A stretch of DNA of 64,000 bases from Thermoanaerobaculia bacterium (GTDB lineage: Bacteria; Acidobacteriota; Thermoanaerobaculia; UBA5066). Shown piece after piece: positions 2,343 through 57,453 of the stretch. Within the stretch, counting starts at the first letter, position 1. Every line of letters starts with the position of its first letter. The DNA lies in NCBI GenBank assembly GCA_038245905.1, contig JBBRRY010000001.1, positions 192,001-256,000 of the forward strand, read 5' to 3'. The position numbers and the translations under genes were made by a program. The notes below the pieces were generated by a model. The model was not told the DNA's origin and made no database searches. It saw only the letters and a list, made by a program, of their open reading frames with translations.

Positions 2343-3229
2343 AATCCATGACCGGATTCGGCCGCGCGGCGGGAACGCTTCCCGACGGGACGGAGGTCTC
2401 AGTCGTCATCCGAGGCGTAAACCACCGTTTTCTCGATCTCTCGATCAAGCTGCGAGACGAGTACACCTCCGCCGAGCCGGCGATCCGGAAGGCTGTCGGT
2501 GCCATCACGGCCCGCGGTCACATCGACGTCATGATCCGGACGACGCGGCCTCCGGGCGTCGCGGGCGCGGCGCCCGCGGCGCGTCTCGACATGGACGCGG
2601 CGGAGCGTTATGCGAGGTTCTGGAAGGAAGATGCTTCGAAAAGGGGTTTGCCGGCGGATCTCTCACCGAGAGACCTTCTCGCGCTGCCCGGCGTCGTGCG
2701 CTCGGACGATGCGGCGGCCGAGCCGGATTCCTCCTTCGAAGAATCTCTCGTTTCCGTGGTCGAAAAGGCTCTTCGCGATTTCGACGGGACCCGCTCACGG
2801 GAAGGCGCGTCTCTTTCTCTTACCTTCAAAGAGATTCTTGGACGAATCGAATCTGGCGTGGCGCTCCTCGACGCAGCACGGGCGGGGATCTGCGAGCGCA
2901 TCGCGGCGACCCTTCGCGAGCGCATCGCGAAGCTTGCCGCGGGCGTGGCGCTCGACGAGTCCCGGCTCGTCCAGGAGGTGGCCCTTCTCGCCGACCGCGC
3001 CGACATCACGGAGGAGATCGACCGCCTCAAGACCCACCTCGTCGAGCTGCGGCGTCTTCTCGCCGCGGGGGGGGCCGTCGGCCGCCGCCTCGACCATCTC
3101 GTGCAGGAGATTCACCGCGAGGTGAACACCTCCGGATCCAAGGTACGGGAGACGGGCGCCACGCGGCTCGTCCTCGACCTCAAGACCGATCTCGAAGCCT
3201 TCAAGGAACAGGTCCAGAACGTCGAATGA
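2339..3229 (+). CDS. yicC: YicC/YloC family endoribonuclease
   Basis: MKSMTGFG, VNHRFLD, DITEEIDRL, REVNTSGSK, KEQVQNVE; ATG overlaps msbA stop; upstream of gmk. Confidence 0.92.
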   Translation: MKSMTGFGRAAGTLPDGTEVSVVIRGVNHRFLDLSIKLRDEYTSAEPAIRKAVGAITARGHIDVMIRTTRPPGVAGAAPAARLDMDAAERYARFWKEDASKRGLPADLSPRDLLALPGVVRSDDAAAEPDSSFEESLVSVVEKALRDFDGTRSREGASLSLTFKEILGRIESGVALLDAARAGICERIAATLRERIAKLAAGVALDESRLVQEVALLADRADITEEIDRLKTHLVELRRLLAAGGAVGRRLDHLVQEIHREVNTSGSKVRETGATRLVLDLKTDLEAFKEQVQNVE

Positions 3230-3239
3230 GAGGATTGCA

Positions 3240-3863
3240 ATGAGCCGAGGCGACCTCTTCATCGTTTCCTCGCCTTCGGGGGCGGGAAAGACGACCTTGA
3301 TCCACCGCGTTCTCCAGGACCCGCGGATCGGGGGCTCCCTCTACTTCTCGGTTTCTCACACGACGCGGCTTCCGCGGGCCGGAGAGCGCACGGGAGTGGA
3401 ATACCACTTCGTCGACGAGAATGCGTTCCGCGCGATCGAGGCACGCGGCGGGTTTCTGGAGTGGGCGGCCGTCCACGGCAACCTCTACGGCACCTCCCGC
3501 GAAGAGGTCGAGCCGCGCCTCGAGAGCGGAATCGACGTCCTGCTCGACATCGACGTCCAGGGAGCGCGCCAGGTGCGTTCTCACGTGCCGGATGCCGTCA
3601 AGGTGATCGTCTTCCCGCCGTCGCGCGAGGTCCTCGAGAAACGGCTCAAGGCTCGGGGGTCCGACGCCCCGGACGTCGTTCTCCGCCGGCTCGCCGCGGC
3701 CCGGAAAGAGATGGAGGAATGGGGCGAATTCGACTATGCGATAATCAACGAGGATCTGGAGGCTGCGGTGGACGAGCTTCGCTCGATCCTCGTGGCGCGG
3801 CGGGCGGGCAAGGGCCGCCGGCGCGAACGCCTCGAATCGATCCTCAGAACATTCGCGCCCTGA
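3240..3863 (+). CDS. gmk: Guanylate kinase
   Basis: SPSGAGKTT, SHTTR, YGT, DIDVQGA. Confidence 0.96.
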   Translation: MSRGDLFIVSSPSGAGKTTLIHRVLQDPRIGGSLYFSVSHTTRLPRAGERTGVEYHFVDENAFRAIEARGGFLEWAAVHGNLYGTSREEVEPRLESGIDVLLDIDVQGARQVRSHVPDAVKVIVFPPSREVLEKRLKARGSDAPDVVLRRLAAARKEMEEWGEFDYAIINEDLEAAVDELRSILVARRAGKGRRRERLESILRTFAP

Positions 3864-3887
3864 ATTTTCACGGAGGACAACCTCTTC

Positions 3888-4118
3888 ATGTCGCAGCTAC
3901 CTCCTAACGTCGAGTCGAAGTTTCGCCTCGTTCACATCGCCGCCCGCCGGGCCGAGCAGCTCGTTCAGGGCGCGCGTCCCAAGATCGACAGCAAACATGC
4001 GAAGGTCACGCGCGTCGCGCTCGAAGAGGTGAACCTCGACCTCGTGCGCTGGCAGCTTTCGTCCCCAGAACCGGCCGCCGAAGAGATCCCGGCCGTCGAC
4101 CTGCTCCCGACCGAGTGA
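3888..4118 (+). CDS. rpoZ: RNA polymerase omega subunit
   Basis: SKFRLVHIAARRAEQL..ALEE; follows gmk. Confidence 0.92.
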   Translation: MSQLPPNVESKFRLVHIAARRAEQLVQGARPKIDSKHAKVTRVALEEVNLDLVRWQLSSPEPAAEEIPAVDLLPTE

Positions 4119-4125
4119 TCTTCGG

Positions 4126-7918: not shown

Positions 7919-8877
7919 GGTCGGCGGAGCTCGAGGACGAGATAAGGATTCAAGGGAGTGCCGGCGAGCCACGTGAAGCCCGGCACGGACGTGAGCGCGT
8001 AGAAGGCCGCCATCGGCGCGCGAAACACCCGTCCGTACCAGTGCGCGCCCACCTGGTTGAAACGCAGACGGTGATGCGGCGAGCGGGCGGAGACGTGGAG
8101 AAAGGGATCCAGGCGCGCCGCGAGCCGGCGGATCTCTCTCACGTTTGGAAGAAATCCTTCGAAGGGGGAATGCCAACGGGCGCCGCCTGCCGTCGGTCCG
8201 TGCCAGAAGTCGACCGGAAAGGCCCCGTTCGGAAAGTCGAGGTAGAGCGCGCCCCCCGGCCTGATCACTCGCGCGAGGCCCGCGAGGAACGCCTCGCGCC
8301 GCGCGTCACGATCCGGGAGCGGCGAGACTTCATAGACCCCGGGCCCGCCACGCTCGTCGACACCGACGTGTTCGAGGACGCCGGACGAGATCACGGCGTC
8401 GAAAAACGCGTCCGGAAAGGGGAGCCTGAGCCCGTCCGCCACAACGAGTCGCTCACGGTGAGCGCGTGCCCGCCACTGCCACTTGCGAAACGACGACAGG
8501 TCATGCCCCCAAGCGTCGAACCCCGCCTCCGAGAGCGTGTCGACCGCCTCGCCGTTCCCGCACCCAGAGTCGAGGACGCGTCGCGCGCCCGTCGAGCGCA
8601 GGAGTGGCAGGTAGTAGTCCTCGATGCGGCGGCCCGCGGTCTCGTTCTCGTATCCGCGGAGCGCCTCTTCGGAAAGGCAGGTGGGGTCCGGGTGGTCGTC
8701 GAAGTACTGCCGTTCGGAAAAATCGGCGATCCCGTCGTCGACGGGGTAGACCTTTCCGCACGCACGGCAGGAGAGAGACGAGGAGCCGGAGAAAGGAGAA
8801 GATTCTTCGAATGTTCCTAAGCAACGGGGGCAGACGAGCGCTTCGGGCGAACGAGCCTCTTCCTCTTCTCTTTCCAC
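7915..8877 (-). CDS. Class I SAM-dependent methyltransferase with N-terminal Trm112-like Zn ribbon (start approximate)
   Basis: CPRC..CRACGKVYPVDDGI; VLDSGCGNG; LPFPDAFFD; VLEHV; VIRPGG. Confidence 0.8.
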   Translation of the reverse strand: MEREEEEARSPEALVCPRCLGTFEESSPFSGSSSLSCRACGKVYPVDDGIADFSERQYFDDHPDPTCLSEEALRGYENETAGRRIEDYYLPLLRSTGARRVLDSGCGNGEAVDTLSEAGFDAWGHDLSSFRKWQWRARAHRERLVVADGLRLPFPDAFFDAVISSGVLEHVGVDERGGPGVYEVSPLPDRDARREAFLAGLARVIRPGGALYLDFPNGAFPVDFWHGPTAGGARWHSPFEGFLPNVREIRRLAARLDPFLHVSARSPHHRLRFNQVGAHWYGRVFRAPMAAFYALTSVPGFTWLAGTPLNPYLVLELRRP

Positions 8878-8958
8878 TCGAAGAAATCTCTCTTCGAAGC
8901 TTGCCTCGGACGCGCCTCGCTGTCGAGAGACTCGCGGGAGGTCTGCTACAGTCTCTTC

Positions 8959-22225: not shown

Positions 22226-23668
22226 GTGAGAGAGCCCGCGCTTCCCCGCAAGGCCCGCAGCGTCTTCGTCGAGACGTGGGGCTGTCAGATGAATGTGCTC
22301 GATGGGCGGCGATTCATAGGGCTTCTGGAGCGAGAGGGGATCGTCGAGGCCGGGACGCCGGAGGAAGCCGACGTTGTTCTGCTCAACACATGCTCGGTGC
22401 GCGACAAGGCTGAGCAGAAGGTCTACGACCGGATCGGACGACTCGCGAAACTGAAGCGTGAACGCGCGGGGATGGTCATCGGGGTTTGTGGCTGCGTGGC
22501 GCAGCAAGAAGGGGAGGACCTCCTGGAGCGCCTCCCACAAGTGGATTTCATCCTCGGGACCGGGCGCATCGAGGCTCTCCCGTCGGTGCTGCGGCGGGTC
22601 GACGAAGAAGGCGACCGACCCTGCGAGACGGGATTCGACCTGGATGAAGTCGTCTATACGCCCGGCGCCGTCGCTCACGCGGTTCCGCACCGTGCCGGGA
22701 TCACGGTGATCGAGGGCTGCAACAAGAACTGCACGTTCTGCGTCGTTCCGAGAACGCGCGGGCGCGAGCGCAATCGCCGCCTGCGTGACGTCGTGGACGA
22801 GGCGCGTTCCCTGGTAGAGGCCGGTGCCCTCGAAATCGAGCTCCTGGGGCAGACCGTGAACGCCTTCCGCGACCCAGAAACGGGCGAGGATCTCGCGGAC
22901 CTCCTGCGCGCCGTCGGCGCCCTGGCAGGAATCCGGCGCCTACGCTTCGTCACGTCCCATCCCGCTAGTTTCTCGGACCGGCTCATCGCCGCGATGAGCG
23001 AGACGCCGGCAGTCGTTCCCGCGCTCCACCTGCCCGTGCAGTCAGGCTCCGACACGGTCCTTCGGCGCATGAAACGTCAGTACACCCGGGCGGAGTACCT
23101 CGACCTCGTCGCGCGGCTCCGCGCCGCAGTTCCAGGCCTCGCACTCTCGACCGACGTCATCGTGGGGTTCCCGGGTGAGACGGAGACTGATTTCCTGGAG
23201 ACGCTTTCGCTCTTTGAAGAGGTCCGGTTTGCCGGCGTCTTCTCCTTCACGTATTCGCCGCGCCCACAGACGGCGGCGCTCAGGTGGGAGCACGACGTCA
23301 CACCGCAGGAAGCATCCGCTCGCCTGGTGCGGCTCGAGGCGCTGCAGCAGGGAGTCCAGAGGGGCCTGAACCGCGCACTTGAGGGGAGCACCCTGGAGGT
23401 GCTCGTCGAAGGCCTCGACCGCAAGCGGCGCAACTGCTCGGGCCGATCGCGCTGTGGACGCGTCGTGAACATCGCTGGCGAGCTGAACCTCGCGCCCGGC
23501 ACGCTCGTGGACGTCCGGATCGAGCGAGGATTTCCGAATTCTCTGCTCGGACGAAGACAGGAAAAGACCCGGGAAAGCGCCCAGGAAAAGATCGAAGAGG
23601 AGATTTCTTCGAAAGTGATTGGGGGCGGAGTCACGGGTGCGACGCAAGTGCTCGACTTGCTCTTGTGA
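22226..23668 (+). CDS. miaB: tRNA methylthiotransferase MiaB
   Basis: ETWGCQMN, NTCSVRDKAE, GCVAQ, CNKNCTFC radical SAM motif, HLPVQSGS, TRAM domain. Confidence 0.95.
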   Translation: MREPALPRKARSVFVETWGCQMNVLDGRRFIGLLEREGIVEAGTPEEADVVLLNTCSVRDKAEQKVYDRIGRLAKLKRERAGMVIGVCGCVAQQEGEDLLERLPQVDFILGTGRIEALPSVLRRVDEEGDRPCETGFDLDEVVYTPGAVAHAVPHRAGITVIEGCNKNCTFCVVPRTRGRERNRRLRDVVDEARSLVEAGALEIELLGQTVNAFRDPETGEDLADLLRAVGALAGIRRLRFVTSHPASFSDRLIAAMSETPAVVPALHLPVQSGSDTVLRRMKRQYTRAEYLDLVARLRAAVPGLALSTDVIVGFPGETETDFLETLSLFEEVRFAGVFSFTYSPRPQTAALRWEHDVTPQEASARLVRLEALQQGVQRGLNRALEGSTLEVLVEGLDRKRRNCSGRSRCGRVVNIAGELNLAPGTLVDVRIERGFPNSLLGRRQEKTRESAQEKIEEEISSKVIGGGVTGATQVLDLLL

Positions 23669-23788
23669 ATTCTTTCCTAACTCATTCTAAGAAAATAAGT
23701 TAGATGCAGAAACGTTGCTGCTCGTTTGCGGGCTGACCTTGCTTTATCCCTTATCTCTCCCTAGATTGAGTCCGGGAGAACCCCCATT

Positions 23789-24274: not shown

Positions 24275-24346
24275 TTTTCGGAGCCGGGGAGCGAATTCGT
24301 CCTTGATGCGCTCTCGGACCCTCCGTATCATCTGCGGCTCGAGCGC

Positions 24347-26009: not shown

Positions 26010-26170
26010 GAAGACAGAACAGAGGCACCAGGCCAGCTCGCCGCCCGCCGCGCCCTCTCAGTCAAATCGCCGTGCGCTTTCATTAACGCCTTCAAATTCC
26101 CTTTCTAAGAAAACCCCTAATGCCCTTTTCCTTCCGCGCGCCTAATGATTTCATGTCTTGTAATTCTGAT

Positions 26171-26242: not shown

Positions 26243-28555
26243 GTGCTCTCGCGCTTGAATCGCTACGTCTTCCTGGAAGTAGCCGGTCCCACGGTCATAG
26301 GCTTCCTCGCGTACACCGGCTTCATGGCGGTACGAGGGCTGGTGCAGTTTTCCGAGCTCCTCGTCCAGAGCGAGCGCCCGTTCGCCGAAGCAGGTCTCGT
26401 GGTAGCGCTCTCGCTCCCGCACATCGTGGTTCTCACGCTGCCCGTCGCGTTCCTTCTCGGACTCCTCATCGGCATCGGCCGCCTCTCGGCTGACTCCGAG
26501 CTGACTGCCCTTCGAGCCTCGGGCGTCGATCTTCTCGTGCTCTATCGCCCGATCGGGGTGCTCGCGACCGTCACTGCCGGCGTGACCCTCGTCCTGATGC
26601 TCACCGTCGTCCCCCGCACGAATCACCTTCTGTATGCCATGAAGCTTCGCCTCTCGAGCTTTGCATTCGCCCAGAGAATCCAGCCGGGCGTGTTCAGCCC
26701 GGAGATCGCCGGCTTGCGCGTCTACGCCGAAGGGGCGTCTCCGGACCGGCGCGAGCTCACCGGGCTCATTATCTCGGACCGTTCCAATCCCGAAGGGGCT
26801 GAGTTGACGCTCGCGCGGCGCGGCTGGCTCGAGCTCGAGGAGGAGCAGGGCCGCTTGTGGCTCCGGGTAGAGGACGCGGAGCGGCACCACCTCTCGGAGG
26901 ACGGGCGGCGATACGACGTCACCTCGTTCTCCCGGCAGCGCATGGTCCTGCAAGACAACGGACCGACCCTTGGCGTCTCCGAAAAGCAGATCCGGGAGCA
27001 GACCCTCCGCGAGCTGCTGGACCGAGCCTCCGCCCGGGCGCGCCGCCCCGAGGACCGGCGACTCGCCCTCACCGAGGTCCACAAGAAGTTCGCGCTCCCG
27101 GCAGCCTGCCTCGTCTTCGGTCTGATCGGGCTCCCCCTCGGAATCGTCAACCGGCGAGGCGGCCGCGCGGCCGGGTTTGCGGTGTCGATCGGGATCGTGC
27201 TCTTCTACTACGCTCTCCTCGCCACGGGCGAGGCCCGCGCCATCGAAGGCCGCATGTCGCCCGCTCTCGCCATGTGGTTGCCAAACCTCCTGCTTCTCGG
27301 CTTCGGCGCATACGCCCTGGCTCGCGTGCGGCGCGACAAGAGCATCGTCGCCCTCCCCTTCAGGACGTCGCTCGTCGCCACCCGTGCCGAGATCTTGGGC
27401 CCCGGCTCGATCGCCGCCTCCGCTCCGATCGAACGCCCAGTCGCGACGCCCGGCCGCCGCGCTTCCCTGCCGGGCCTCCTTCTCGTTGACCGTTACATCG
27501 CAAGGCGATTTCTCGGCGTCTTCGTTCTCGTCGTGGCCTCGATCGCGACTCTGTACATGCTGATCGACTACCTCGAGATTTCAGACGACATCGCGCGCCA
27601 TCGGCCACCGACGTCCTTGATCCTCCGTTACGTCCAGGCTTCGCTCTCCCCCATCGTTCTGGCCATCGTGCCGTTCGCCTTCCTCGTCGCGGCCCTCGTC
27701 ACGGTTGCGAGCCTCGTGCGCTCGGCCGAGACGACCGCTCTCCTGGCGCACGGCGTTTCTCTCTACCGGACGACGGCCCCGATTCTCGTCCTCGCCGTGA
27801 TCGCAGGAGGCCTCCTCTTCCTCTTCGCCGAGCGCATCGTCCCGACGGCCGCCTCCGAAGCCGATCGACTCAGGTTCCTGTTGAAGGGACAGACGCCACC
27901 TGCAAGCAACGCCGGCGGTGTCTGGTTCCGCGGCGACGCGGGGCGTTTCTATTCCGCGGACGCCTACGACCCCGCGTCGCGCATCGCCGTCGGCGTGACG
28001 GTCTTTCAGATCGATCCGTCGACCTGGAGGCTTGTCTCCCGTCACGACGCGGCACGGGCACGCCTCGCCCCTGGGAAAGGCCTCCTCGCGGAGGACGGGT
28101 GGATCCGTACGTTCACCGAGGGCCATACTCTCGCCATCCGGCGCGACGGCCCGTTCTTCATCGATTCTCCCGAATCCGCGGCCGGATTCGTCTCTGGCCG
28201 GGCGGACCCACGCCAGATGACCTACCGCGAGCTGGCGCGCTTCATCGAGGTGCGGCGCCGGGCGGGTGCCGACACGGCGATGCTCGCGACCGGGCTGCAC
28301 CAGAAGACCGCTGGGGCGGCTTCCGCACTTCTCCTGACACTCGTCGGGCTTCCCTTCGCGTTCGCGTACGGAAAGCGAGGCGCCGTCGCGGGCGTCGGCA
28401 TCGCGCTGTTCCTTGGCCTGACCTACCTGTTCCTGTCCGCGCTCCTCGTTTCGTTCGGCGAGCAGGGAGCCATTCCACCCCTCATCGCGGCATGGGCGCC
28501 GAACGTGTTCTTCGGGCTCGGGGCGGCGTGGGGGCTTTTGGGGGTCAGGACGTAA
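26243..28555 (+). CDS. Fused LptF-LptG LPS export permease
   Basis: Two tandem YjgP/YjgQ units (RLSADSELTALRASG..WLPN; SAETTALLAHG..WAPN). Confidence 0.88.
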   Translation: MLSRLNRYVFLEVAGPTVIGFLAYTGFMAVRGLVQFSELLVQSERPFAEAGLVVALSLPHIVVLTLPVAFLLGLLIGIGRLSADSELTALRASGVDLLVLYRPIGVLATVTAGVTLVLMLTVVPRTNHLLYAMKLRLSSFAFAQRIQPGVFSPEIAGLRVYAEGASPDRRELTGLIISDRSNPEGAELTLARRGWLELEEEQGRLWLRVEDAERHHLSEDGRRYDVTSFSRQRMVLQDNGPTLGVSEKQIREQTLRELLDRASARARRPEDRRLALTEVHKKFALPAACLVFGLIGLPLGIVNRRGGRAAGFAVSIGIVLFYYALLATGEARAIEGRMSPALAMWLPNLLLLGFGAYALARVRRDKSIVALPFRTSLVATRAEILGPGSIAASAPIERPVATPGRRASLPGLLLVDRYIARRFLGVFVLVVASIATLYMLIDYLEISDDIARHRPPTSLILRYVQASLSPIVLAIVPFAFLVAALVTVASLVRSAETTALLAHGVSLYRTTAPILVLAVIAGGLLFLFAERIVPTAASEADRLRFLLKGQTPPASNAGGVWFRGDAGRFYSADAYDPASRIAVGVTVFQIDPSTWRLVSRHDAARARLAPGKGLLAEDGWIRTFTEGHTLAIRRDGPFFIDSPESAAGFVSGRADPRQMTYRELARFIEVRRRAGADTAMLATGLHQKTAGAASALLLTLVGLPFAFAYGKRGAVAGVGIALFLGLTYLFLSALLVSFGEQGAIPPLIAAWAPNVFFGLGAAWGLLGVRT

Positions 28556-28556
28556 A

Positions 28557-28615
28557 GAGGATTTTCTTAGAAGGTGCCCGTGCTCCCGACCACTCTTCCC
28601 TTCTAAGAAATCCTC
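28557..28615. repeat. Inverted repeat between convergent genes; cleanest copy of the dispersed motif pair; may also act as a terminator
   Basis: GAGGATTTTCTTAGAAGG-N24-CCTTCTAAGAAATCCTC. Confidence 0.75.
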
Positions 28616-28630
28616 CTCTTCGTCTTCGTC

Positions 28631-32210: not shown

Positions 32211-32804
32211 TCAAGGCCGGAATATAAGGAATCGAGTCGTTCCGTATCGGCGGCGGTCGGCGGGCTCGAGACCCGACGGGCGATAGACCTCGTCGTCGCC
32301 GCGTTCGTGAAACAGCCAGCCCGCCGGTCTGACGAGAGCGAGTAGAGATTGAAGATCGGATTGGGAATTTGCTCCGAAAGGGGGATCGTGGAAGACCACG
32401 TCGAACAGGGAGACGCCTCGGTTCCCGAAAGGGCCCGCGGCGGCGCCTGCGATGTCGGCGCCCGAGACTCCGGCGCGTCCCTCTTCATCTTTCGAAGCAA
32501 ATCTCTCTACGGACGTCACCTCGACGCGAGACGCATCCCCCGCACCCAGCCGCTCCAGATTCCCACTCAAAGCCCTCGCAACCATCCGGTCCGCCTCGAC
32601 GAAGGTCGCGTGCTTCGCTCCGCGCGAGAGCGCCTCGAGCCCATACGCTCCCGAGCCCGCGCACGAATCGAGGACGCGCGCGCCGCGCACGGCCTCGCTG
32701 AGGATGTCGAACGCGGCCTTGCGCGCGAGCTCGGTTGTCGGGCGGATGCCTTCGGGTACTTCGAGCCGGCGTCCCCGCCACAGGCCGCCCGTCAGGCGCA
32801 CCAC
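32211..32804 (-). CDS. rsmD: 16S rRNA m2G966 methyltransferase RsmD family
   Basis: RPT, AGSGAYGLEALSRGA, DPPF, RRYG. Confidence 0.85.
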   Translation of the reverse strand: MVRLTGGLWRGRRLEVPEGIRPTTELARKAAFDILSEAVRGARVLDSCAGSGAYGLEALSRGAKHATFVEADRMVARALSGNLERLGAGDASRVEVTSVERFASKDEEGRAGVSGADIAGAAAGPFGNRGVSLFDVVFHDPPFGANSQSDLQSLLALVRPAGWLFHERGDDEVYRPSGLEPADRRRYGTTRFLIFRP

Positions 32805-33526: not shown

Positions 33527-34494
33527 CGCGGCTCCAGTCCCGCGGCATGCCTCAGGGCCTTCGAAAAGTTCAAGCGCGACGCGATGGCGGCGCGCTCGGG
33601 CCGCGGCAGCGGCTCGAGGAGGCGTCGCCAGACTTCTCCTGGTTTCGGACGCGCATCCACCCCGCGCGGCCCGTCTGCAGATGTCTTCGGAGAAAGTACC
33701 GATAGATTTTTCTTAGAAGGAAATACGGGCCCCAACCACCCGGGAAGGACGTCACCGAAAAGTGAAGGGCCGCTCGCGAGGGCCGCCGCAGCCTCCCATT
33801 CACGTTCTAAGAAAATCTCTTCTATTCCTTTCCTCATTCGGTCGCCCGAGAGAGCTGCGAAAGCGCCTGCGGCTCTCGCCGCCTTCAACGCCTTCAGAAA
33901 CTCTCCGTCCCAGCCGAATCCGAGCCGCGCTGCGTACTTGACCGCGCGGTAGGCCCGCGTCGGATCGTCGACGAGCGATTTCGGATGGAGGAGTCGGATC
34001 TTCCTTGCTTCGAGGTCGGCGCGCCCTCCAAAGGGATCGAGCACGCGCCCGACGAGGCCGCGACGTCCGACCCGCCGCGCCATCGCATGGATCGTGAAGT
34101 CCCGGCGGCCGAGGTCGTCCTCGATCGTGGTCGTGCCGATCACGACCGGCAGACTGGCTGGCGACGGGTATTCCTCGCGGCGGGTCGCCGCGATATCGAC
34201 GCGGAGGCCGCTCGGCCCGCGGAGAGTCGCGGTCCCGAAACGGACGTGCGTCTTCTCGAGCGTCCAGCCGGGCAGAGCGCCCAGGCGGGCCGCAAACTCC
34301 AGAGCGCTCGCCGCACCTGCCTCGACGGCCAGATCGACGTCGCGAAGAGGGCGCCCAAGAAGGAGGTCGCGCAGCGCGCCTCCGACGAGCCACAGTCCCA
34401 CCTCGCGCCGGTCGGCAACCTCGCCCGCGCGCGCGAGATGAACCCCGATTGCTTCGGCATCGAGCCTGGGAACGGGCTCGCCGATTTCGCTCAT
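33523..34494 (-). CDS. tRNA nucleotidyltransferase class II (CCA family, A-adding-like)
   Basis: VGG.LRD..L..DVD, FGTA, RRDFTI.AM, DPFGG, DDPTR; ATG overlaps dnaE stop. Confidence 0.85.
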   Translation of the reverse strand: MSEIGEPVPRLDAEAIGVHLARAGEVADRREVGLWLVGGALRDLLLGRPLRDVDLAVEAGAASALEFAARLGALPGWTLEKTHVRFGTATLRGPSGLRVDIAATRREEYPSPASLPVVIGTTTIEDDLGRRDFTIHAMARRVGRRGLVGRVLDPFGGRADLEARKIRLLHPKSLVDDPTRAYRAVKYAARLGFGWDGEFLKALKAARAAGAFAALSGDRMRKGIEEIFLEREWEAAAALASGPSLFGDVLPGWLGPVFPSKKNLSVLSPKTSADGPRGVDARPKPGEVWRRLLEPLPRPERAAIASRLNFSKALRHAAGLEPR

Positions 34495-37400
34495 GAAGCG
34501 GATGCGTAGACGTATCGGACGGAGCCGGGGCCGAGTAGGGTCTGCATAGACGCCGTGAATTCGGGCGAGGGTCGGACCCACAGGCGGGAGTCGATCCTTT
34601 GGCGGGCGGCGAAGTGGCCGGGCCGGCGCAGCTCAAGCGATACGGGCACCGAGCCCGCATATCTTCTGAGAACCTCCCTAAGGGCCTCTTCGTCGAAGGT
34701 CTCGAAGTTCTGAGGAACGATCAGCACTTCCCGCGCGGCCTGCTCGCGCATGCCCTCGAGAGGCTGGATCTCGCGCGCGATGAGCTCGACCGGAATGCCG
34801 GCGGTCTCGCCCTCGGAAGCGTCGTGCGTCGCACCGCCGGGCGCCATCGAGAGGCGCACCGTCCCGGTGACGAGCACGGCCCGCCCGGGGGCGAGCCACG
34901 AGCCCACCCGCTCGAGAAGACTCGCGAAGACCGTGACGGGCACGGAGCCCGTCAGGTCCTCGACGACGGCTTTCGCCATCATCTTTCCTTCGTTCTGCCC
35001 CTTCTTGATCTGATTCTTCTTGATCGCGCCGACGAGGCCCACGAGCTTCACCGGCGCGTCGAGACGATCGCGCAACGTCTCGCACGTCACGTCGCCGAAC
35101 AGCCGGATCTCGTCCTCGAAGCGCGCGAGGGGGTGGCCCGTGATGTAGAAGCCGAGCGTCTCCTTCTCGTAGCGGATCTTCTCGTCGACGTTCCACTCCG
35201 GCTTGTCCGGGAACTGGTCCTCGACCCTCGATTCTTCGGGGACGTCGAAGAGAAGGTTCTGGCTCGACGCCGCGGCGTCGCGAGCCGCCGCCGCGACGTC
35301 GACGGCATGGTCGAGCCCGTCCAGAAACGCCGCGCGGCTCTTTCCCAGCGAGTCGAAGCAGCCGGACTTGATGAGCGCCTCGATGACTCTCTTGTTGTTG
35401 AGACGGAGATCGACGCGCGAGCAGAAGTCCGTGAGGGACTTGAACGGCCCGTCGCCTGCGCGCGCCGCGAGAACGGACGCGACGGCGCCTTCTCCGACAC
35501 CCTTGACGGCTCCGAGCCCGAAACGGATGGCCGGCCCGTCGGGCGTGAACGAGAGATCCGACGCGTTGACGTCGGGCGGCAGCACGGCGATCTTCATGTC
35601 CCGACACGTGTTCACGTACTTCACGACATCGTCCGAGCTCCCCGAGCTCGCCGTCAGGGTGGCCGCCAGGAACTCCACCGGGTAATGCACCTTCATCCAC
35701 GCGGTGCGATACGCGAGAAGCGCGTAAACGACCGAGTGAGACTTGTTGAAGCCGTACCGGCCGAAGGGCAGGATGAGGGCCCACAGCTCCTCGGCCTTCC
35801 TCTTCGGAGTCCCGTTCGCGACGGACTTCTTGATGAACTTGTCGCCCTCGGCCTTGAGCAGCGCGTCGTCCTTCTTGCCGATCGCCTTCCGGAGCTTGTC
35901 CGCTTCGCCCGGCGTGTAGCCCGCCACGGCCCGCGCCGCGAGCATGACTTGCTCCTGATAGACGAGGACGCCATGCGTCTCCCGGAGAATCGGCTCGAGC
36001 TGCGGCAGCGGATACTCGAACTTCGTTCCCCGGCGTCTCTGGATGTAAACCTCGACGGTGCCGGCGTCCAACGCGCCCGGACGATAGAGCGCGTTGAGCG
36101 CCGCGAGGTCGTCGAACACCTCGGGCTTCACGCGGCGGAGAAGATCGCGCATCCCGGACGACTCGAACTGGAAGACCCCGTCCGTCCGACCGTCGGCGAA
36201 GAGCCTGTAGACCTCGGGGTCGTCGAGTGGAATCGCATCCACGTCCGGGCGCTTTCCGTCCTTCTTCTCCGCGAAACGCAGCGCGTCGTCGAGGATCGTC
36301 AGCGTGATGAGTCCGAGGAAGTCCATCTTCAGGAGGCCCATCCGGTCGACGGACTTCATCTCGAACTGCGTCGTGATTTCGTCGTTGCTGTTCCGGTAGA
36401 GAGGGAGGTACTCCACGAGCGGCCTCGGGGCGATGAGAACGCCGGCCGCGTGCACGCCCGCGTGCCGCGACACACCCTCGAGGCGCTCGCCGAGGTCGAA
36501 GAGACGCCGGTAGGTCTCGTTGTCCCGGAGCGCGTCGGCAAGCTCCTTCACGTCCCGGCGCGCCTCGGCGAGCATCGTCGGCTTTCCCGGGTTCGCCGGG
36601 ATGAGCGAGCAGAGGCGGTTCACCTCGGCCAGCGGCACGTCGAGGACGCGGCCCACGTCGCGGATGACGGCCCGGGCCTTCATGGAGTTGAACGTGATGA
36701 TCTGGCCGACGTTCTCGCGCCCGTACTTCGTGCGCACATACTCGATGACCTCCCCGCGGCGCCGCTCGCACAGGTCGACGTCGATGTCGGGCATCGAGAT
36801 GCGGTCCGGGTTCAGGAAACGCTCGAACAGCAGATCGTACTTGAGCGGGTCGACGTCCGTAATCTTGAGCGCGTACGCGACCAGCGAGCCGGCCGCGCTC
36901 CCCCGCCCCGGACCCACGGGAATAGCCTGGTCCTTCGCGTACTTGATGAAGTCCCACACGATGAGGAAATAGCTCGAGAGGCCCATCTTCCGGATGACGG
37001 ACAGCTCCCAGGTCAGGCGTTCGTCGTACTCGACCCGAGTCTTTTTCGCCGTGCCGTTCTCGAACGACGCGCGCAGCGGCTCGAGCCGGCGCTCGAGGCC
37101 CTCCTTCGCGAGGTCCTCGAGATACTCCTCGGGGGTCTGCTCCCCTCCCGGAACGGGGAACGTGGGGATCTTGAGGCCGGTATCCAGGATGACGCTCGGT
37201 GTGACGCGCTCGGCGATCGCGGCCGTGTTCTTCACCGCTTCGAGCGTGTATGGGCGGAACACGTCGCTCATCTCCTCGGCGTTCTTCACGTAGAACTCCG
37301 AGTTGTAGAACCTCATCCGCTTCGCGTCGTTGAGCGTCTTCCCCATCCCGATGCAGAGAAGGACGTCCTGCGCCGCGGCGTCGTCCCGAGTCAAATAGTG

Positions 37401-38036
37401 CGAATCATTCGTCGCGACCGGCGGAATGCCGGTCTCCGAAGAAAGCCGCAGGAGATCCGGGAGGATCTGCCGCTGCTCGGGGAGACCGTGATCCATGAGC
37501 TCGATGAAGTAGCGGTCCTTCCCGAAGAGGTCGCGGTATTTCAGCGCCGTCTTCTTCGCCCCTTCGTAGTCGCCGATCCGGAGCCTTTTGGAGACCTCCG
37601 AGTTCAGGCAGCCGGACAGGGCGATGATCCCTTCGTGGTACTTCTCGAGGAGCTCCCAGTCCATCCGCGGCTTGTAGTAGAAGCCGGAAAGGAACGCCTC
37701 CGAGACGAGCCGCGCGAGATTCCGGTAGCCGTCGGGATTCTCCACGAGGAGCGTCAGGTGATAGTTGCTTCCTTCTCCGTCGAACGTCTTCACGCTTTCG
37801 CGGTCGAATCGCGAACCGGGTGCGATATACGCCTCGACGCCGAGGATCGGCTTGATCCCCGCCTCGAGCGCGGTCGTCTGGAGCTCGTACGCCCCGAACA
37901 TGTTTCCGTGATCCGTGACCGCGACGGCGTCCATGCCGGTCGACTTGACCTGCCTGATCAGGTCCTTGAGCCGGTTCGCGCCGTCGAGGAGGGAGTACTG
38001 GGTGTGGAGGTGGAGGTGAACGAAGTCGCCGGACAT
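34491..38036 (-). CDS. dnaE: DNA polymerase III alpha subunit
   Basis: HLHLHTQYSLLDG PHP domain, GPGRGSAAGS, SMPDIDVD, KMDFLGL, FNKSH. Confidence 0.98.
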   Translation of the reverse strand: MSGDFVHLHLHTQYSLLDGANRLKDLIRQVKSTGMDAVAVTDHGNMFGAYELQTTALEAGIKPILGVEAYIAPGSRFDRESVKTFDGEGSNYHLTLLVENPDGYRNLARLVSEAFLSGFYYKPRMDWELLEKYHEGIIALSGCLNSEVSKRLRIGDYEGAKKTALKYRDLFGKDRYFIELMDHGLPEQRQILPDLLRLSSETGIPPVATNDSHYLTRDDAAAQDVLLCIGMGKTLNDAKRMRFYNSEFYVKNAEEMSDVFRPYTLEAVKNTAAIAERVTPSVILDTGLKIPTFPVPGGEQTPEEYLEDLAKEGLERRLEPLRASFENGTAKKTRVEYDERLTWELSVIRKMGLSSYFLIVWDFIKYAKDQAIPVGPGRGSAAGSLVAYALKITDVDPLKYDLLFERFLNPDRISMPDIDVDLCERRRGEVIEYVRTKYGRENVGQIITFNSMKARAVIRDVGRVLDVPLAEVNRLCSLIPANPGKPTMLAEARRDVKELADALRDNETYRRLFDLGERLEGVSRHAGVHAAGVLIAPRPLVEYLPLYRNSNDEITTQFEMKSVDRMGLLKMDFLGLITLTILDDALRFAEKKDGKRPDVDAIPLDDPEVYRLFADGRTDGVFQFESSGMRDLLRRVKPEVFDDLAALNALYRPGALDAGTVEVYIQRRRGTKFEYPLPQLEPILRETHGVLVYQEQVMLAARAVAGYTPGEADKLRKAIGKKDDALLKAEGDKFIKKSVANGTPKRKAEELWALILPFGRYGFNKSHSVVYALLAYRTAWMKVHYPVEFLAATLTASSGSSDDVVKYVNTCRDMKIAVLPPDVNASDLSFTPDGPAIRFGLGAVKGVGEGAVASVLAARAGDGPFKSLTDFCSRVDLRLNNKRVIEALIKSGCFDSLGKSRAAFLDGLDHAVDVAAAARDAAASSQNLLFDVPEESRVEDQFPDKPEWNVDEKIRYEKETLGFYITGHPLARFEDEIRLFGDVTCETLRDRLDAPVKLVGLVGAIKKNQIKKGQNEGKMMAKAVVEDLTGSVPVTVFASLLERVGSWLAPGRAVLVTGTVRLSMAPGGATHDASEGETAGIPVELIAREIQPLEGMREQAAREVLIVPQNFETFDEEALREVLRRYAGSVPVSLELRRPGHFAARQRIDSRLWVRPSPEFTASMQTLLGPGSVRYVYASAS

Positions 38037-51424: not shown

Positions 51425-52270
51425 ATGGACGGAGCACGGGCGAGGCAGCGCGTCACCGAGGCGCGCCGAATCGTGGTCAAGGCCGGGACGAACGTCATCA
51501 TGCGCGACGACGGTGCCGTCGCGCTCGGGCGCCTCTACGGGCTCATCGAGTCCGTCGCGACCCTGAAGAAGCAGGGACGGCACGTCCTGATCGTGTCCTC
51601 GGGCGCCGTCGGACTGGGGGCCCAGCGCCTCCGCCTGGAGAAGAAGCCGAGCTCGCTCGCCCTCAAGCAGGCGTGCGCCGCCATCGGGCAGAGCCGGCTC
51701 ATGTCCGTCTACGAGGAAGGGTTCGAGAAGATGGGCCTGACGACCGCGCAGGTCCTCCTCACCGAGGACGACTTCGCGGACAAGGCGCGTTTCTCCAACC
51801 TCTCGGCGACGCTCGAGAAGCTCCTCGAGCTGGGCGCCGTGCCGATCCTGAACGAGAACGACACCGTTTCGACGGCCGAGCTGGAGTCGCCCGACGGCAA
51901 AGGCGCTCCCCGCGGACTCTTCGGCGACAACGACCGGCTCTCCGCCCTCGTGATGAGCAAGATCCGCGCGGACGTCCTCGTCATCCTCTCCGACGTCGAC
52001 GGCCTCTTCACGGGCAATCCGGCACACGACCGCAACGCCACGCTCATCCCGGTCGTCCGCGAGCTCACCGACGAGGTCGTCCGTTACGCGGACGGTGGAG
52101 GTGCGCGCGGACGCGGCGGGATGGCCTCGAAGCTGGACGCCGTGAAGATCGCGACGCAGGCGGGCGGAATCGCGGTGATTGCGAACGGGCGGACACCCGG
52201 AGTGCTCGACAGGCTCTTCGGCGGCGACGCGATCGGGACGCTCTTCGTGCCGGTCGCTGCTCGCAGGTAG
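51425..52270 (+). CDS. proB: Glutamate 5-kinase (short form, no PUA domain)
   Basis: IVVKAGT, SSGAV, NENDTV, FGDNDRLS, GGMASK. Confidence 0.94.
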   Translation: MDGARARQRVTEARRIVVKAGTNVIMRDDGAVALGRLYGLIESVATLKKQGRHVLIVSSGAVGLGAQRLRLEKKPSSLALKQACAAIGQSRLMSVYEEGFEKMGLTTAQVLLTEDDFADKARFSNLSATLEKLLELGAVPILNENDTVSTAELESPDGKGAPRGLFGDNDRLSALVMSKIRADVLVILSDVDGLFTGNPAHDRNATLIPVVRELTDEVVRYADGGGARGRGGMASKLDAVKIATQAGGIAVIANGRTPGVLDRLFGGDAIGTLFVPVAARR

Positions 52271-52272
52271 AG

Positions 52273-53613
52273 ATGTCCGAAGAGAAGATTCTCCTGGAAG
52301 GTGAAGAGGGGGCCCGGCGCGTCGCCGCGGCTGCGCGGACTGCTGCGCGGCGCCTCGCGGTGCTTTCTCCCGGGGAGAAGAGCTCGGTCCTCCTGGCGGT
52401 CGCCGACGGAATCGAGGCGGCGCGAGACGCCATTCTCGAGGCGAACCGGGCGGACGTGCTCGACGCTCGCACCACCTTCAAAGAAATCAACTCTCCGGTC
52501 TCCCTCCTCGACCGGCTCGTCCTCGACGAGCAGAAGGTTCGCGACATGGCCGCCGGCGTCCGCGCCGTTGCGGCGCTGCCCGACGCGTCCGGGCGAGTTC
52601 TCTCCCGCACGCTCCTCGACGACGGCCTCGTCCTCGAGAAGGTCGCCTGCCCGCTCGGCGTCCTCCTCGTCGTCTTCGAGTCGCGGCCCGACGCCGTCCC
52701 GCAGATCGCGTCGCTCGCGCTCAAGTCCGGCAATGCGGCGATCCTCAAGGGCGGGCGTGAGTCCGCCCGCTCGACCGCGGCGATCCTGGACGTCTTCGCA
52801 GGCGTCTTCGCGCGGCACCCTGAGATTCCCGGAGGCGCGCTGCAGTCCGTCGGCGGCCGCACCGACGTCGATGCCCTGCTCGCGCTCGACGACGACATCG
52901 ATCTCGTCATTCCCCGCGGCGGCTACGACCTCGTGAAGCACGTGAAGGCGAAGACGCGCATTCCGGTGCTCGGCCACGCCGAGGGCGTTTGCCACGTCTA
53001 CCTGGACCGCGCGGCGGACGAAACGATGGCGACGGCGATCGCCCTCGACGCGAAGCTCCAGTACCCCGCGGCGTGCAACGCGGCCGAGACGCTCCTCGTC
53101 CACCGCGAGGCGGCCGTCCGCTTCCTCGTTCCCCTGCTCGGACGCCTCGCCGCGGCGGGCATCGAGCTCCGCGCATGCGCGGCGACGCGCGCCCTCGCGC
53201 CGTCGCTCCGGCTCACGCCTGCGACGGAGGACGACTGGCGCGCTGAATACGGAGCGCCCGTCCTCGCCGTGAAGATCGTCGAGTCGCTCGACGAGGCGAT
53301 CGAGCACGTGAACCGCTACGGCTCGCACCACACCGAGGCGATCGTCACCGGCGACGCCGCGGCGGCGGAGATGTTTCTGTCTCGTGTCGACGCCGCGGGC
53401 GTCTTCCACAACGCGTCCACGCGCTTCGCGGACGGATTCCGTTACGGGTTCGGGGCGGAGATCGGCGTCTCAACTTCGCGTCTCCATGCACGCGGACCGG
53501 TCGGTCTCGAGGGGCTCGTGACGTACAAGTACGTCCTTCGAGGCAGCGGCCAGGTCGTCGCGACGTACTCGGGGAAGGGCGCGCGGCCCTTCCGGCACGA
53601 GCGCCTAGGCTAG
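52273..53613 (+). CDS. proA: Gamma-glutamyl phosphate reductase
   Basis: ESRP, KSGNA.ILKGG, ACNA.ET, NASTRFADG, HARGPVGL. Confidence 0.96.
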   Translation: MSEEKILLEGEEGARRVAAAARTAARRLAVLSPGEKSSVLLAVADGIEAARDAILEANRADVLDARTTFKEINSPVSLLDRLVLDEQKVRDMAAGVRAVAALPDASGRVLSRTLLDDGLVLEKVACPLGVLLVVFESRPDAVPQIASLALKSGNAAILKGGRESARSTAAILDVFAGVFARHPEIPGGALQSVGGRTDVDALLALDDDIDLVIPRGGYDLVKHVKAKTRIPVLGHAEGVCHVYLDRAADETMATAIALDAKLQYPAACNAAETLLVHREAAVRFLVPLLGRLAAAGIELRACAATRALAPSLRLTPATEDDWRAEYGAPVLAVKIVESLDEAIEHVNRYGSHHTEAIVTGDAAAAEMFLSRVDAAGVFHNASTRFADGFRYGFGAEIGVSTSRLHARGPVGLEGLVTYKYVLRGSGQVVATYSGKGARPFRHERLG

Positions 53614-55589: not shown

Positions 55590-55610
55590 CTTCGCTCCTT
55601 CCGTGATCAT

Positions 55611-56033
55611 TCAGTAGAACTCGCCCGGCTTGAGCGAATAGCAGGAAAACGACATCTTCGCGGAATCCGCCTGGCAGACGGGCTTTCCGGGAGTCGATTC
55701 CCTCTCGAGGAGGAAATTCGTCTCGGACCCCGCGACGTGGTCCGAGAGCGCCTTGTAGACGCACCAGCAGGAATCGTGAGAGACGCCGGGTGTCGTGTAT
55801 GCCGACTGCGCCGTGAGACCGGCCTTCGTGAAGTTTTTCTGCGTCCACGGGGCGATCACGCCAATCGCGGCTGTGGCGGAAACGACGGGACATGCGAAGG
55901 TCAGGGGCTCGGCCAGGATCAGCTTCTTGATTTTCGCGGAGAGCTGCGGATTGAGCTGCGCCGGGGGCGCGGCGAGCCCGATACCGCTCGTGAGAGCGAA
56001 AACGAGGGACGTACACTTCAGGAGTGCCTTCAT
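55611..56033 (-). CDS. Small secreted Cys-containing protein (paralog B)
   Basis: SD GGAGG, signal peptide, aligns with paralog A. Confidence 0.72.
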   Translation of the reverse strand: MKALLKCTSLVFALTSGIGLAAPPAQLNPQLSAKIKKLILAEPLTFACPVVSATAAIGVIAPWTQKNFTKAGLTAQSAYTTPGVSHDSCWCVYKALSDHVAGSETNFLLERESTPGKPVCQADSAKMSFSCYSLKPGEFY

Positions 56034-56125
56034 CGACTATGTCCTCCCTCGGGCCAGACGACCCGATTCGGGAGGACTGACGGGACGGAGGAGCTTCCGG
56101 CATAGACGGCGGGAAGGGATTCCGG

Positions 56126-56665
56126 CTATTCCGCCTTCGCGGGCCGCCGCAGCCGGCCGATCAGGGCACGCGGCCCGGCCGCGATGCCGCCCGCGACGAG
56201 CCCCGTCGCCACGGCCGCGAACGCGGCGAGGGCCACGAGCAGCGGCCCCACGTTGATGCCCCCAGGAAGGTCCCCGCCGTGCGCGACACGGTTCAGGGAG
56301 GCGCCGAAGGTCAGCGCGGCTAGCGCCGTGCCCCCGAGAAATGCCCACCGGCTCTCCCTGGGCATAGACAACTCGGCCTTGCGGGCTGGGCCTCGCGACC
56401 AGAGAGGCGCCGCGACCGACACGCCGGCGTCGGCGAAGAAAAGCAGCAGGCCCGCCATGAGATAGGGCGGCAGGAAAGCCAGGATCGACGCCACGATGAA
56501 ACGCACGAGAGGCCTTTTCGTCAGGGCAGCCCCGAGCGCATCGGCGAGAAACGGATACGCCGTGAACGACTCAGCGGCGTGGGGGTGAGCCACGAGATAC
56601 GCGCCGAGAACGAGAAGGAAGGCTCCCGGAGAGACCAGGAGGAACGCGCGCACCGTCCGGAACAT
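56126..56665 (-). CDS. Hypothetical membrane protein (about 4 TM)
   Basis: Hydrophobic segments; starts 2 bp after the transglycosylase stop. Confidence 0.65.
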   Translation of the reverse strand: MFRTVRAFLLVSPGAFLLVLGAYLVAHPHAAESFTAYPFLADALGAALTKRPLVRFIVASILAFLPPYLMAGLLLFFADAGVSVAAPLWSRGPARKAELSMPRESRWAFLGGTALAALTFGASLNRVAHGGDLPGGINVGPLLVALAAFAAVATGLVAGGIAAGPRALIGRLRRPAKAE

Positions 56666-56667
56666 CG

Positions 56668-57453
56668 TCAGAGGGCCGCTCGTGCGATCCGGCCGGGCGG
56701 GCCCCACAGCGCGAGCACGCGTTTCACGTAGTCGAGGGTCTCCCGGTAAGGCGGCACGCCGCCGTATTCCTCCACCGCATGCTCTCCCGCGTTGTACGCC
56801 GCCAGGATGAGATCCGCGTTCGTCTCACCGAACCGCTCGGCGAGCTCGGCGAGATACGCGACGCCGCCACGGATGTTGTCCCGCGGATCGAACGGGCGCT
56901 TCACGCCGAGGCGCCGCGCCGTGGCCGGCATGAGCTGCATGAGACCGCGCGCTCCCTTCCGGGACACGGCATGCGGGTGGCCGTTCGACTCGACCTTGAT
57001 GACGGCCGCGATGAACGCGGGATCGACTTTGTGCTCCTTCGCGGCCGCGAGAATCTGCGAGGAATAGGGGGACGAGAAGGAGGAATAGGGCGATTCCGAG
57101 AGGGTGCGGACGGAACGGCTTGCTTCCAAAGGCGCGCCGACCGGGACCCCACCGGCGTCTCCCGGCTTCGTCGGCGCCGGACGCTCGTACTCGTCGTCCA
57201 CGATGCGCGCGACGACGTCGAGGGGAATCGTCATCGAGCCGCCGCCCACGAGCCCGACCGTGAGCCGGTCGCCGTCCACGACCTCGTAGCTCGCGACCCG
57301 GAGATGTCGCCCGTCCTCGAACACGACGAGCGTGGCGGCCGCTGGCGCCGCGCAGAGGCCTAGAAGAGCGAACCCTGCACAGACGAGGACGATCCCTCTT
57401 CCCCTTCTGAGCAAATCCCTCTCTTTCTTCTCTTTCCGACTCATCGCCATCAT
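56668..57453 (-). CDS. Lytic transglycosylase (SLT domain)
   Basis: VES, AVSRKGARGLMQLMP, AAYNAG, PPYRET..YV. Confidence 0.92.
   Translation of the reverse strand: MMAMSRKEKKERDLLRRGRGIVLVCAGFALLGLCAAPAAATLVVFEDGRHLRVASYEVVDGDRLTVGLVGGGSMTIPLDVVARIVDDEYERPAPTKPGDAGGVPVGAPLEASRSVRTLSESPYSSFSSPYSSQILAAAKEHKVDPAFIAAVIKVESNGHPHAVSRKGARGLMQLMPATARRLGVKRPFDPRDNIRGGVAYLAELAERFGETNADLILAAYNAGEHAVEEYGGVPPYRETLDYVKRVLALWGPPGRIARAAL

Follow-up and report, generated by a model that had tools for sequence, protein, structure and literature searches.

The window analysed here is a 64-kb stretch of contig C1 (positions 192001-256000) of genome G000, a Thermoanaerobaculia bacterium whose 3.80 Mb are distributed over 113 contigs with 67-68% G+C. 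The window holds ordinary housekeeping genes, among them those encoding a MiaB-like protein, ParA and ParB, a fused LptF/LptG, AdoHcy hydrolase, MetK, DnaE, ProB and ProA, and between and within these genes a short oriented motif recurs, mostly as pairs of copies that face each other (Table 1). A single copy of the motif is called an arm and a facing pair an island, and spacings are given from core start to core start.

The Motif and Its Abundance

An arm is about 40 bp long and consists of a near-palindromic, AT-rich core (CC TTC T/A/G AAG A/C AA A/T) within a pyrimidine-rich tract. The consensus of the copies reads as a pyrimidine-rich run, CC, the core, A/T, and then 16-26 further pyrimidines. 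The islands were earlier described, in a sequence-only reading of the same DNA, as purine-rich on the left and pyrimidine-rich on the right, and this asymmetry is visible in the sequence logo. Arms were scored with a 26-nt weight matrix built from G000's own copies, and a score of at least 14 was taken to define an arm. By this measure G000 contains 584 arms, or about one per 6.5 kb, while about eight are expected (2 per simulated Mb under a first-order Markov model). The exact 10-mer TTCTAAGAAA is found in 109 copies in G000 when both strands are counted, and less than one is predicted from the base composition. The earlier degenerate version of the motif (IUPAC code, at most three mismatches) is also over-represented, for the window yields 16 matches, while 100 shuffles averaged 2.56 and never exceeded seven.

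The matrix recovered nine of the ten forward copies that had previously been picked out by eye (2735, 8877, 23685, 26103, 28601, 32491, 33805, 52477, and 57405). The tenth, at 34664 inside dnaE, scored below 8 and is probably a chance match. All seven reverse copies were recovered, four of them strong (23604, 28563, 32369, and 33709) and three weak, with scores of 9-14 (2631, 8802, and 52290). One pair in the window that was absent from the earlier list, 61240/61355, was found by the matrix as well. A literature search found no paper that describes the motif, and Rfam gave no match in the window at gathering scores and none in 32100-34000 even at E-values up to 1.

Pair Geometry

The most distinctive property of the arms is their mutual orientation. 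Among adjacent arms lying 21-260 bp apart in G000, 162 pairs are arranged reverse-then-forward, as against six forward-reverse, 17 forward-forward, and 23 reverse-reverse, and the order first noticed in the window is accordingly found genome-wide. Strict patterns gave 33 reverse-forward pairs and none of the opposite order within 300 bp, and for loci from other metagenome-assembled genomes (MAGs) the corresponding numbers were 67 and five. An inner-side partner was found for 205 of 322 strict arms and an outer-side partner for seven of the 322, the latter figure being the 1.6% chance rate. About two thirds of the arms belong to facing pairs. The spacing has a mode of 75-89 bp, which comprises 42 of 130 pairs, and a tail that extends to about 240 bp.

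What lies between the arms is not shared between islands. When it comes to the interiors, 51 of 55 match themselves alone in G000, the exceptions being kinase paralogs and the tails of the arms. Partners resemble each other no more than non-partners do, the values being 0.398 vs. 0.405 (inner) and 0.311 vs. 0.321 (outer). Each arm thus fits the common consensus and not its partner, as would be expected for the sites of a trans-acting factor. No excess was found of long-range facing pairs able to bound a parent element. Because the orientation is fixed, a spacing is preferred, the interiors are unrelated, and the partners are not especially alike, the unit is an oriented motif in two copies, which are independent of each other but fixed in their mutual orientation. 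The island is neither a co-evolving hairpin nor a repeat element with a shared body.

Taxonomic Range

The core is strictly confined to one genus. The 12-mer CCTTCTAAGAAA is present in 45-210 copies in each of 21/21 genomes of one Thermoanaerobaculia genus, which were counted in two sets (12/12, then 9/9, of which some were new). It is found in zero copies in 6/6 genomes from four other genera of the same family, and 135 genomes from 16 other families of the class have at most two copies, a level also given by the reversed-pattern control. The unpublished genome G018 contributes a single zero-copy row, and the restriction to the genus is independent of it. Of the 80 motif-sharing records listed, 72 are Thermoanaerobaculia or Acidobacteriota MAGs, and eight are single hits in unrelated taxa. 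The copies are equally numerous on both strands.

A GC-richer or otherwise diverged dialect of the motif may exist in the sister genera. The AspS gene of the sister-genus genome G066 has near-arms at both of the places where arms are found in G000. In a search for such a dialect, the 10-mers found to be over-represented in G066 and G016, each sampled over 200 kb, were ordinary coding words. A scan for order asymmetry gave no signal, and gave none in a 200-kb positive control from G000 either.

Arms within Genes and Their Origin

The coding potential dips from about -120 to +60 around the core. The genes flanking the islands lie about equally often on either strand, in agreement with the earlier remark that the pairing disregards gene strand. 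Among the 64 strict pairs, a single frame runs through 23, with coding sequence flanking them on either side; a gene begins at the entering arm in another 13 and ends inside the island in about 10. In a Ser/Thr kinase the two arms are read as EDFLEGEER and FEEIPGSLSSSS, with a conserved kinase segment between them. The start of TrpC lies between two arms, the forward one of which is read as a Ser-rich insert ahead of the first strand. In the ProA of the window the N-terminus, MSEEKILLEGEEG, is the reverse arm, while the forward arm is read as TTFKEIN, an in-frame TAA being changed to AAA.

Comparison with relatives indicates how such arms come about. The proA arms are found in the same places in 6/6 aligned orthologs from the genus (the rows of G008 and G011 were left out of this alignment), and the only length variation is in the pyrimidine/purine tails, in multiples of three. 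The proA genes of G005 and G007 contain one more reverse arm, which precedes the forward arm by about 85 bp and replaces sequence of the G000 type without any gap. In AspS the arms of G000 and G001 differ from the corresponding sequence of G066 by a few changes towards A/T and no alignment gaps. Both changes in the forward arm of AspS are synonymous third-position changes that oppose the strong third-position GC (GC3) bias of the genome, while the reverse arm differs in part by conservative replacements, and remoter relatives have unrelated sequence there. The odd AT-rich, rare-codon patches and the low-complexity stretches of Ser/Pro or Glu/Lys that are seen in otherwise conserved proteins from these genomes are accounted for by such arms, which is of importance for annotation.

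Islands in spacers turn over faster than intragenic arms. In G000 and G001 the spacer between lptFG and ahcY holds the pair, while G009 and G003 have short GA/CT hairpins there and G011 has a 1.3-kb insert; in G004 the two stop codons overlap and there is nothing between the genes. Contigs of related populations from three metagenome runs join 28545 directly to 28633, and no clear target duplication was seen among the relatives at the island 28556-28630. In metagenome contigs from four runs, all 15 of the 82 joints that were listed are skips and none is a strand change, and these contigs, in which rare variants are dropped, give no hint that the segment between the arms inverts. Both insertion and substitution occur, and substitution is the dominant process within genes.

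The 1.3-kb insert of G011 (L005) has an inverted repeat of about 22 bp at its ends, different in sequence from the arms, and CTAG on both sides. It resembles an insertion sequence that has landed exactly where other species hold a motif island.

Gene Classes Carrying Arms

The aminoacyl-tRNA synthetase (aaRS) genes were listed by three Pfam families, and a locus was counted if it had at least one arm in the gene or within 150 bp. Arms are found at 9/11 of these loci, and at 11/13 if AlaS and CysS, both first met in clusters of arms, are added. As a background, 168 of 1072 confidently called genes of 1.2-3.6 kb carry arms. None of 17 other core genes does so (10 EF-Tu-family GTPases, GyrA, ParC, RpoB, and four ATP-synthase-type ATPases), while ABC ATPases, with 7/60, are at the background level. 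Compared with a wider control list of 22 genes, which includes two hits from neighboring islands, the difference gives a Fisher p of 7e-5. The aaRS bias is strong and specific, and it provides a concrete functional hypothesis.

The densest 14-kb windows by the matrix are found on C14 (18 arms), C17 (15), and C5 (14). Dense clusters include a cysS-aro-his-trp operon on C17 and asd-lysC-dap-lysA on C5, and the fourth cluster contains anion transporters.

Islands and Genes of the Window

Table 1. Arms, islands, and genes of the window, with one region of contig C3. Positions are those of the window except in the last row, and numbers in brackets after arm positions are matrix scores.
Feature	Position	Strand	Arms (score)	Spacing (bp)	Remarks
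Pair	2623..2752		reverse 2631 (9.3), forward 2735 (18.4)	104	weak; inside + strand open reading frame (ORF) 2339-3229
Extra forward arm	2825		forward 2825 (22.3)		beyond the 2631/2735 pair
Pair	8794..8894		reverse 8802 (13.7), forward 8877 (26.1)	75	
Pair	23596..23702		reverse 23604 (32.6), forward 23685 (24.8)	81	
Forward arm	26095..26120	+	core 26103 (31.8)		between ParB stop (26009) and dif-like site (26171-26197)
Pair	28555..28618		reverse 28563 (26.5), forward 28601 (34.2)	38	fills spacer between convergent LptFG and AdoHcy hydrolase genes
Pair	32361..32508		reverse 32369 (14.4), forward 32491 (29.8)	122	656-bp spacer upstream of metK
Pair	33701..33822		reverse 33709 (28.7), forward 33805 (33.1)	96	between two - strand genes
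Pair	52282..52494		reverse 52290 (10.6), forward 52477 (25.5)	187	inside proA (52273-53613); reverse arm degenerate, codons 3-13; forward arm at about codon 68
Forward arm	57397..57422	+	core 57405 (23.6)		single; on - strand encodes residues 11-16, charged N-terminus, of gene 56668-57453
Pair	61232..61372		reverse 61240 (16.3), forward 61355 (15.1)	115	inside + strand gene 60875-62014
MiaB-like gene	22226-23668				
Bifunctional nuclease gene	23840-24274				
ParA	24347-25108				
ParB	25137-26009				
LptF/LptG fused gene	26243-28555				
AdoHcy hydrolase	28631-29974	-			
ArsR-type helix-turn-helix fused to SAM-dependent methyltransferase	29971-30936	-			between ahcY and metK, within SAM-cycle operon
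MetK	30984-32150	-			
DnaE	34491-38036	-			
ProB + ProA	51425-53613				
Second ParB_N gene, canonical parS, dnaA neighborhood	G000:C3:44126-52869				

The - strand ORF from 7915 to about 8950 reads both the 8802 and the 8877 arm in frame, one of them lying between two CxxC pairs. The 23604 arm lies in the final codons of the MiaB-like gene, while its partner at 23685 lies in the spacer ahead of the bifunctional-nuclease gene. The arm at 26103 is without a strong partner, and a purine-rich stretch across the ParB stop, noted by eye, may be a decayed one. In the gene that precedes the 28563/28601 pair, LptF and LptG appear to be fused as one 770-residue ORF, of which two stretches are matched by the LptF_LptG family.

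The pair in the metK leader is found at the matching place in 4/4 relatives whose DNA covers the spot. The 656 bp upstream of metK that hold this conserved motif pair (32151-32806) have stops in the translated frame, and as no Rfam match was obtained there at E-values up to 1, the leader contains no recognizable S-adenosylmethionine (SAM) riboswitch. In a related population (runs X2 and X3) a 30-nt insert with a reverse-type arm is found at 32432, in the middle of this island, and it would bring the arm spacing nearer to the preferred value.

Relation to the Terminus, dif, and ParB

A dif-like site is found at 26171-26197. Its 11-base XerD-type arm is unique in G000, and it has the same place in 5/5 relatives. 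At about 28.5 kb of the window the genes switch from all being on the + strand to mostly being on the - strand. In G016, which is a single contig of 3.84 Mb, dnaA and the ortholog of the window's ParB are separated by 49.6% of the chromosome, and the two ParB genes are 1.91 Mb apart. The region apparently behaves like a terminus. The cumulative GC skew, which is weak, peaks near 145 kb of C1; the dif-like site and the strand switch (at 220 kb) are about 70 kb away.

The sequence-only reading proposed that the motif is densest around dif and that it serves as binding or loading sites for a chromosome-structuring protein, analogous to matS/MatP or as a non-canonical parS for the adjacent ParB. 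It is correct that all six exact copies of TTCTAAGAAA in the window lie at 23685-33814, around the dif-like site, and these form the top 10-kb cluster of exact copies in G000, the next having four. The claim of highest density holds for exact copies in this genome only. By the matrix the cluster, with nine arms in 14 kb, ranks about tenth, arms are present on all large contigs of G000, and the clustering is absent in relatives: the 20 kb around dif contain 1-7 relaxed copies in five relatives, compared to 11 in the window. An arm is found about 70-130 bp from dif in four of six genus genomes compared. A density rising towards dif is contradicted by G011, a relative with a 3.9-Mb contig, where the + strand copies listed are evenly distributed over 2.5 Mb (coefficient of variation of the gaps 1.13). 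Among the same + strand matches, none lies within 50 kb of the dif equivalent, where 3.5 are expected, and seven lie within 100 kb, where 7.0 are expected.

The proteins do not fit either. No match to MatP (PF06303) was found in G000, which is 96.4% complete, while the E. coli control was matched, and with arms spread over the whole genome a MatP-like terminus organizer is not supported. Full-length orthologs of the window's ParB, with 48-73% identity, are encoded in 5/5 genomes that have zero copies of the 12-mer (G058, G066, G111, G118, and G016, representing four sister genera and a sister family), which speaks against the motif being the parS of this protein. G000 encodes two ParB_N genes, and its sole perfect canonical parS is located at C3:51693, 0.9 kb from the second of these and 7-8 kb from dnaA. 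No canonical parS was found in the window at up to three mismatches.

The complete ParA-ParB operon of the window directly adjoins the dif-like site (24347-26197 for the two together), and the arrangement with two ParB genes is conserved across the order.

A Tentative Model and Its Alternatives

The islands are here tentatively interpreted as paired recognition sites for a putative two-armed DNA-binding protein, an interpretation that we favor with somewhat less than even confidence. Of the earlier proposal, the part concerning paired sites for a DNA-binding protein thus fits the evidence, while the specific links to the terminus and to ParB are left without support. We infer that the reader is a protein, that it reads DNA rather than RNA, and that its binding has an effect. 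A reading at the level of double-stranded DNA would best explain why the mutual orientation is fixed, why a certain distance is preferred whatever sequence lies between, why the arms are independent of each other and indifferent to gene strand and frame, and why their place is conserved at several loci. An island would then be two oriented recognition sites in double-stranded DNA, both gripped by a sequence-specific protein with two DNA-binding units, for instance a dimer of dimers, which would bend or wrap the DNA between them. Such a protein might be a regulator or a local architectural protein, and not a terminus organizer. Particular loci retain the sites, namely the genes of tRNA synthetases, the his-trp-aro and dap-lys operons, proA, and the leader of metK, and the intragenic ones are written in through synonymous or conservative substitutions.

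Several observations weigh against this model. As many as 331 of the 584 arms (57%) lie inside confidently called genes, which make up 81% of G000, and this is unusual for operators. The spacings show no clear helical period; the best was a period of 9, with p about 0.01 uncorrected for 12 tests. Since purine and pyrimidine arms can pair as RNA in any register, the missing covariation between partners leaves room for an RNA stem. Arm-bearing genes are slightly lower in codon typicality, a difference possibly confounded by crude gene calls, and as arms are commoner in such genes, their persistence may depend in part on where rare codons are tolerated. The host genes are functionally diverse. 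A sample of 20 of the 68 unannotated hosts of intragenic pairs (86 hosts in total) includes NADH dehydrogenase subunit G, acyl-CoA ligases, LigD, a Mur ligase, MnmE, AroA, transporters, and glycosyltransferases. Amino-acid enzyme families are not enriched either, with arms in 0/10 PALP enzymes and 1/8 amino-acid kinases. With hosts so diverse and these enzymes not enriched, no simple amino-acid regulon is demonstrated, and a regulon for amino-acid biosynthesis was rejected as a candidate on the second of these counts and on the anion transporters of the fourth cluster, even though the his-trp-aro and dap-lys operons rank among the densest clusters.

A more far-reaching version of the model is conceivable, although on balance improbable. 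In this version one genus would have evolved a genome-wide system that positions a DNA-bridging or wrapping complex on about 160 islands of about 150 bp, many of them in essential genes, including almost all of the tRNA synthetase genes tested. It is equally doubtful, but worth stating, that the complex could work from inside coding sequence and provide general control of the amino-acid supply, a switchable roadblock or a local topological clamp being two forms it might take. With the same degree of reservation, the signal might be regarded as imposed on the proteins through recoding. We know of no described bacterial system with such an anatomy.

If it is true that a protein reads the pairs, a DNA signal is overlaid on conserved coding sequence across a whole genus. 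The overlay would have arisen since the genus split from its sisters, and would show how fast a genome-wide cis-code can originate. Gene control or DNA exchange would also become approachable in a lineage that is uncultured and widespread in sediment and soil. Because the genus boundary is strict, it should be possible to find the reader protein by phylogenetic profiling.

A quite different possibility is that the arms spread by molecular drive as a signal for uptake or recombination, much like the uptake signal sequences (USS) and DNA uptake sequences (DUS). Fragments with the motif would be preferred in uptake or recombination, and the copies would accumulate by substitution across the gene pool of the genus, also inside genes. 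To our knowledge no fixed pair geometry has been described for USS or DUS, and two thirds of the arms in facing pairs with a mode of 75-89 bp is a geometry that drive leaves unexplained. The density of USS and DUS is moreover several-fold above the one per 6.5 kb found here. Drive does not predict the contrast between aaRS and other core genes. On the other hand, a core that is strictly genus-specific (21/21 vs. 0/6, and at most two copies in 135 genomes), equal numbers on both strands, substitution into genes against the GC3 bias, and the diversity of the host genes are what such a process would leave behind. G000 also encodes ComEC and a PilT-family ATPase, although competence genes are common in non-transformable bacteria as well. 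Uptake sequences are known to occur within genes, with biases in orientation and position (PMC2346458). All in all we consider drive of this kind unlikely.

That the element acts as RNA is distinctly unlikely in our view, even though a purine arm followed by a complementary pyrimidine arm some 80 nt further on could form a long stem with consequences for the processing, stability, or translation of the mRNA or for termination. Owing to the reverse-then-forward order, the RNA polarity is the same for either strand, and the reverse arm resembles a Shine-Dalgarno sequence and is often found directly before a start codon. In some spacer islands a GC hairpin followed by a T-rich run can be seen by eye between the arms. 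The short-loop island at 28545-28635 folds at -32.3 kcal/mol with a significant z-score of -4.45 against shuffles, and the arms are paired in the minimum-energy folds of two other islands, but four of the five window islands that were folded are unremarkable (z -0.09 to -0.96). There is further no complementarity specific to partners and no Rfam match in the window. It is not obvious why an RNA should prefer one loop length around unrelated sequence, and simple stems do not need the same core at hundreds of loci.

It has also been considered that the islands are left over from a small, mobile and palindromic element, with the arms as its inverted ends, of the kind known as MITEs (miniature transposable elements with inverted repeats), repetitive extragenic palindromes (REPs) and their doublets (REPINs), or Rickettsia palindromic elements (RPEs). 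The arms do form inverted doublets like REPINs, the lptFG-ahcY island is present, reduced, or absent among relatives and the three metagenome runs, and the 30-nt insert at 32432 carries a reverse-type arm. Arms are also read through in frame, which is described for RPEs (PMC10969869). The interiors, in contrast, consist of unique sequence belonging to the host, some of it from conserved parts of ProA, TrpC, and the protein kinase, and in proA and AspS the arms arise without any change in length. Partner arms no more alike than others, the lack of an excess of long-range facing pairs, and the lack of a match in G000 to the Y1/RAYT transposase family (PF01797) point in the same direction. A mobile origin seems to fit just some of the spacer islands and, judged from the intragenic pairs, to be largely refuted, which makes it very improbable as a general explanation.

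Terminus-linked MatP-like sites or a non-canonical parS for the adjacent ParB, to which the exact copies around the dif-like site, the arm near dif in four of six genomes, and a ParAB operon without a canonical parS in the window lend some appeal, are contradicted by the genome-wide arms, the matrix ranking, the dif region of G011 and those of the five relatives compared, the ParB orthologs of motif-free genera, the canonical parS beside the other ParB near dnaA, and the missing MatP match, and can hardly be upheld.

Comparison with Known Systems

The arms share with matS/MatP and parS/ParB that they are dispersed DNA sites of similar core length, and one cluster lies beside dif and a ParAB operon. 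They differ from matS in not being restricted to the terminus and in that MatP is not matched in G000. Unlike parS they are oriented and paired and are not restricted to the origin; canonical parS is found elsewhere, and ParB is kept in motif-free genera. Site and ParB thus do not co-occur across genomes, and the arms are not a canonical 16-bp palindrome clustered near the origin.

CodY boxes in Firmicutes are operators of a global regulator; they are AT-rich near-palindromes, and sites are also found inside genes. The AT-rich, near-palindromic core, the many sites, the sites in coding regions, and the amino-acid-related genes are common to both. The arms differ in being about 40 bp and oriented, in their obligate pairing, and in their restriction to one genus. 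A CodY regulon was rejected as a candidate, as no CodY gene (PF06018) was matched in G000.

RPEs are palindromic repeats read in frame within unrelated genes (PMC10969869), and in this they and intragenic MITEs resemble the arms. An RPE is an insertion of about 150 bp with a conserved interior, while here only the arms are shared, the interior is the gene's own, and there is no change in length. Neither a conserved interior (51 of 55 are unique) nor an origin by insertion (proA and AspS are free of gaps) is thus found.

REPs and REPINs, with their associated transposases (RAYTs), are likewise dispersed inverted doublets in hundreds of copies per genome, independent of gene strand, and the 162 reverse-forward against six forward-reverse pairs found here agree with this. 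The difference lies in the absence of a RAYT match, in the 57% of arms that are intragenic, in the host interior, and in an arm that forms no stable hairpin by itself. An extragenic location is not what is seen, with 331 of 584 arms intragenic and 23 of 64 pairs read through.

USS in Pasteurellaceae and DUS in Neisseriaceae are short, lineage-specific motifs that number in the hundreds, lie on both strands, and are found within genes and in spacers alike. They are accommodated by substitution and form inverted pairs in intergenic spacers. The arms are likewise a lineage-specific, over-represented motif that occurs on both strands and also in genes. Biases of uptake sequences within genes are described in PMC2346458. 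The arms stand apart from USS and DUS in that they form a facing pair at a preferred 75-89 bp even in genes, carry long pyrimidine tails, and are biased towards aaRS genes.

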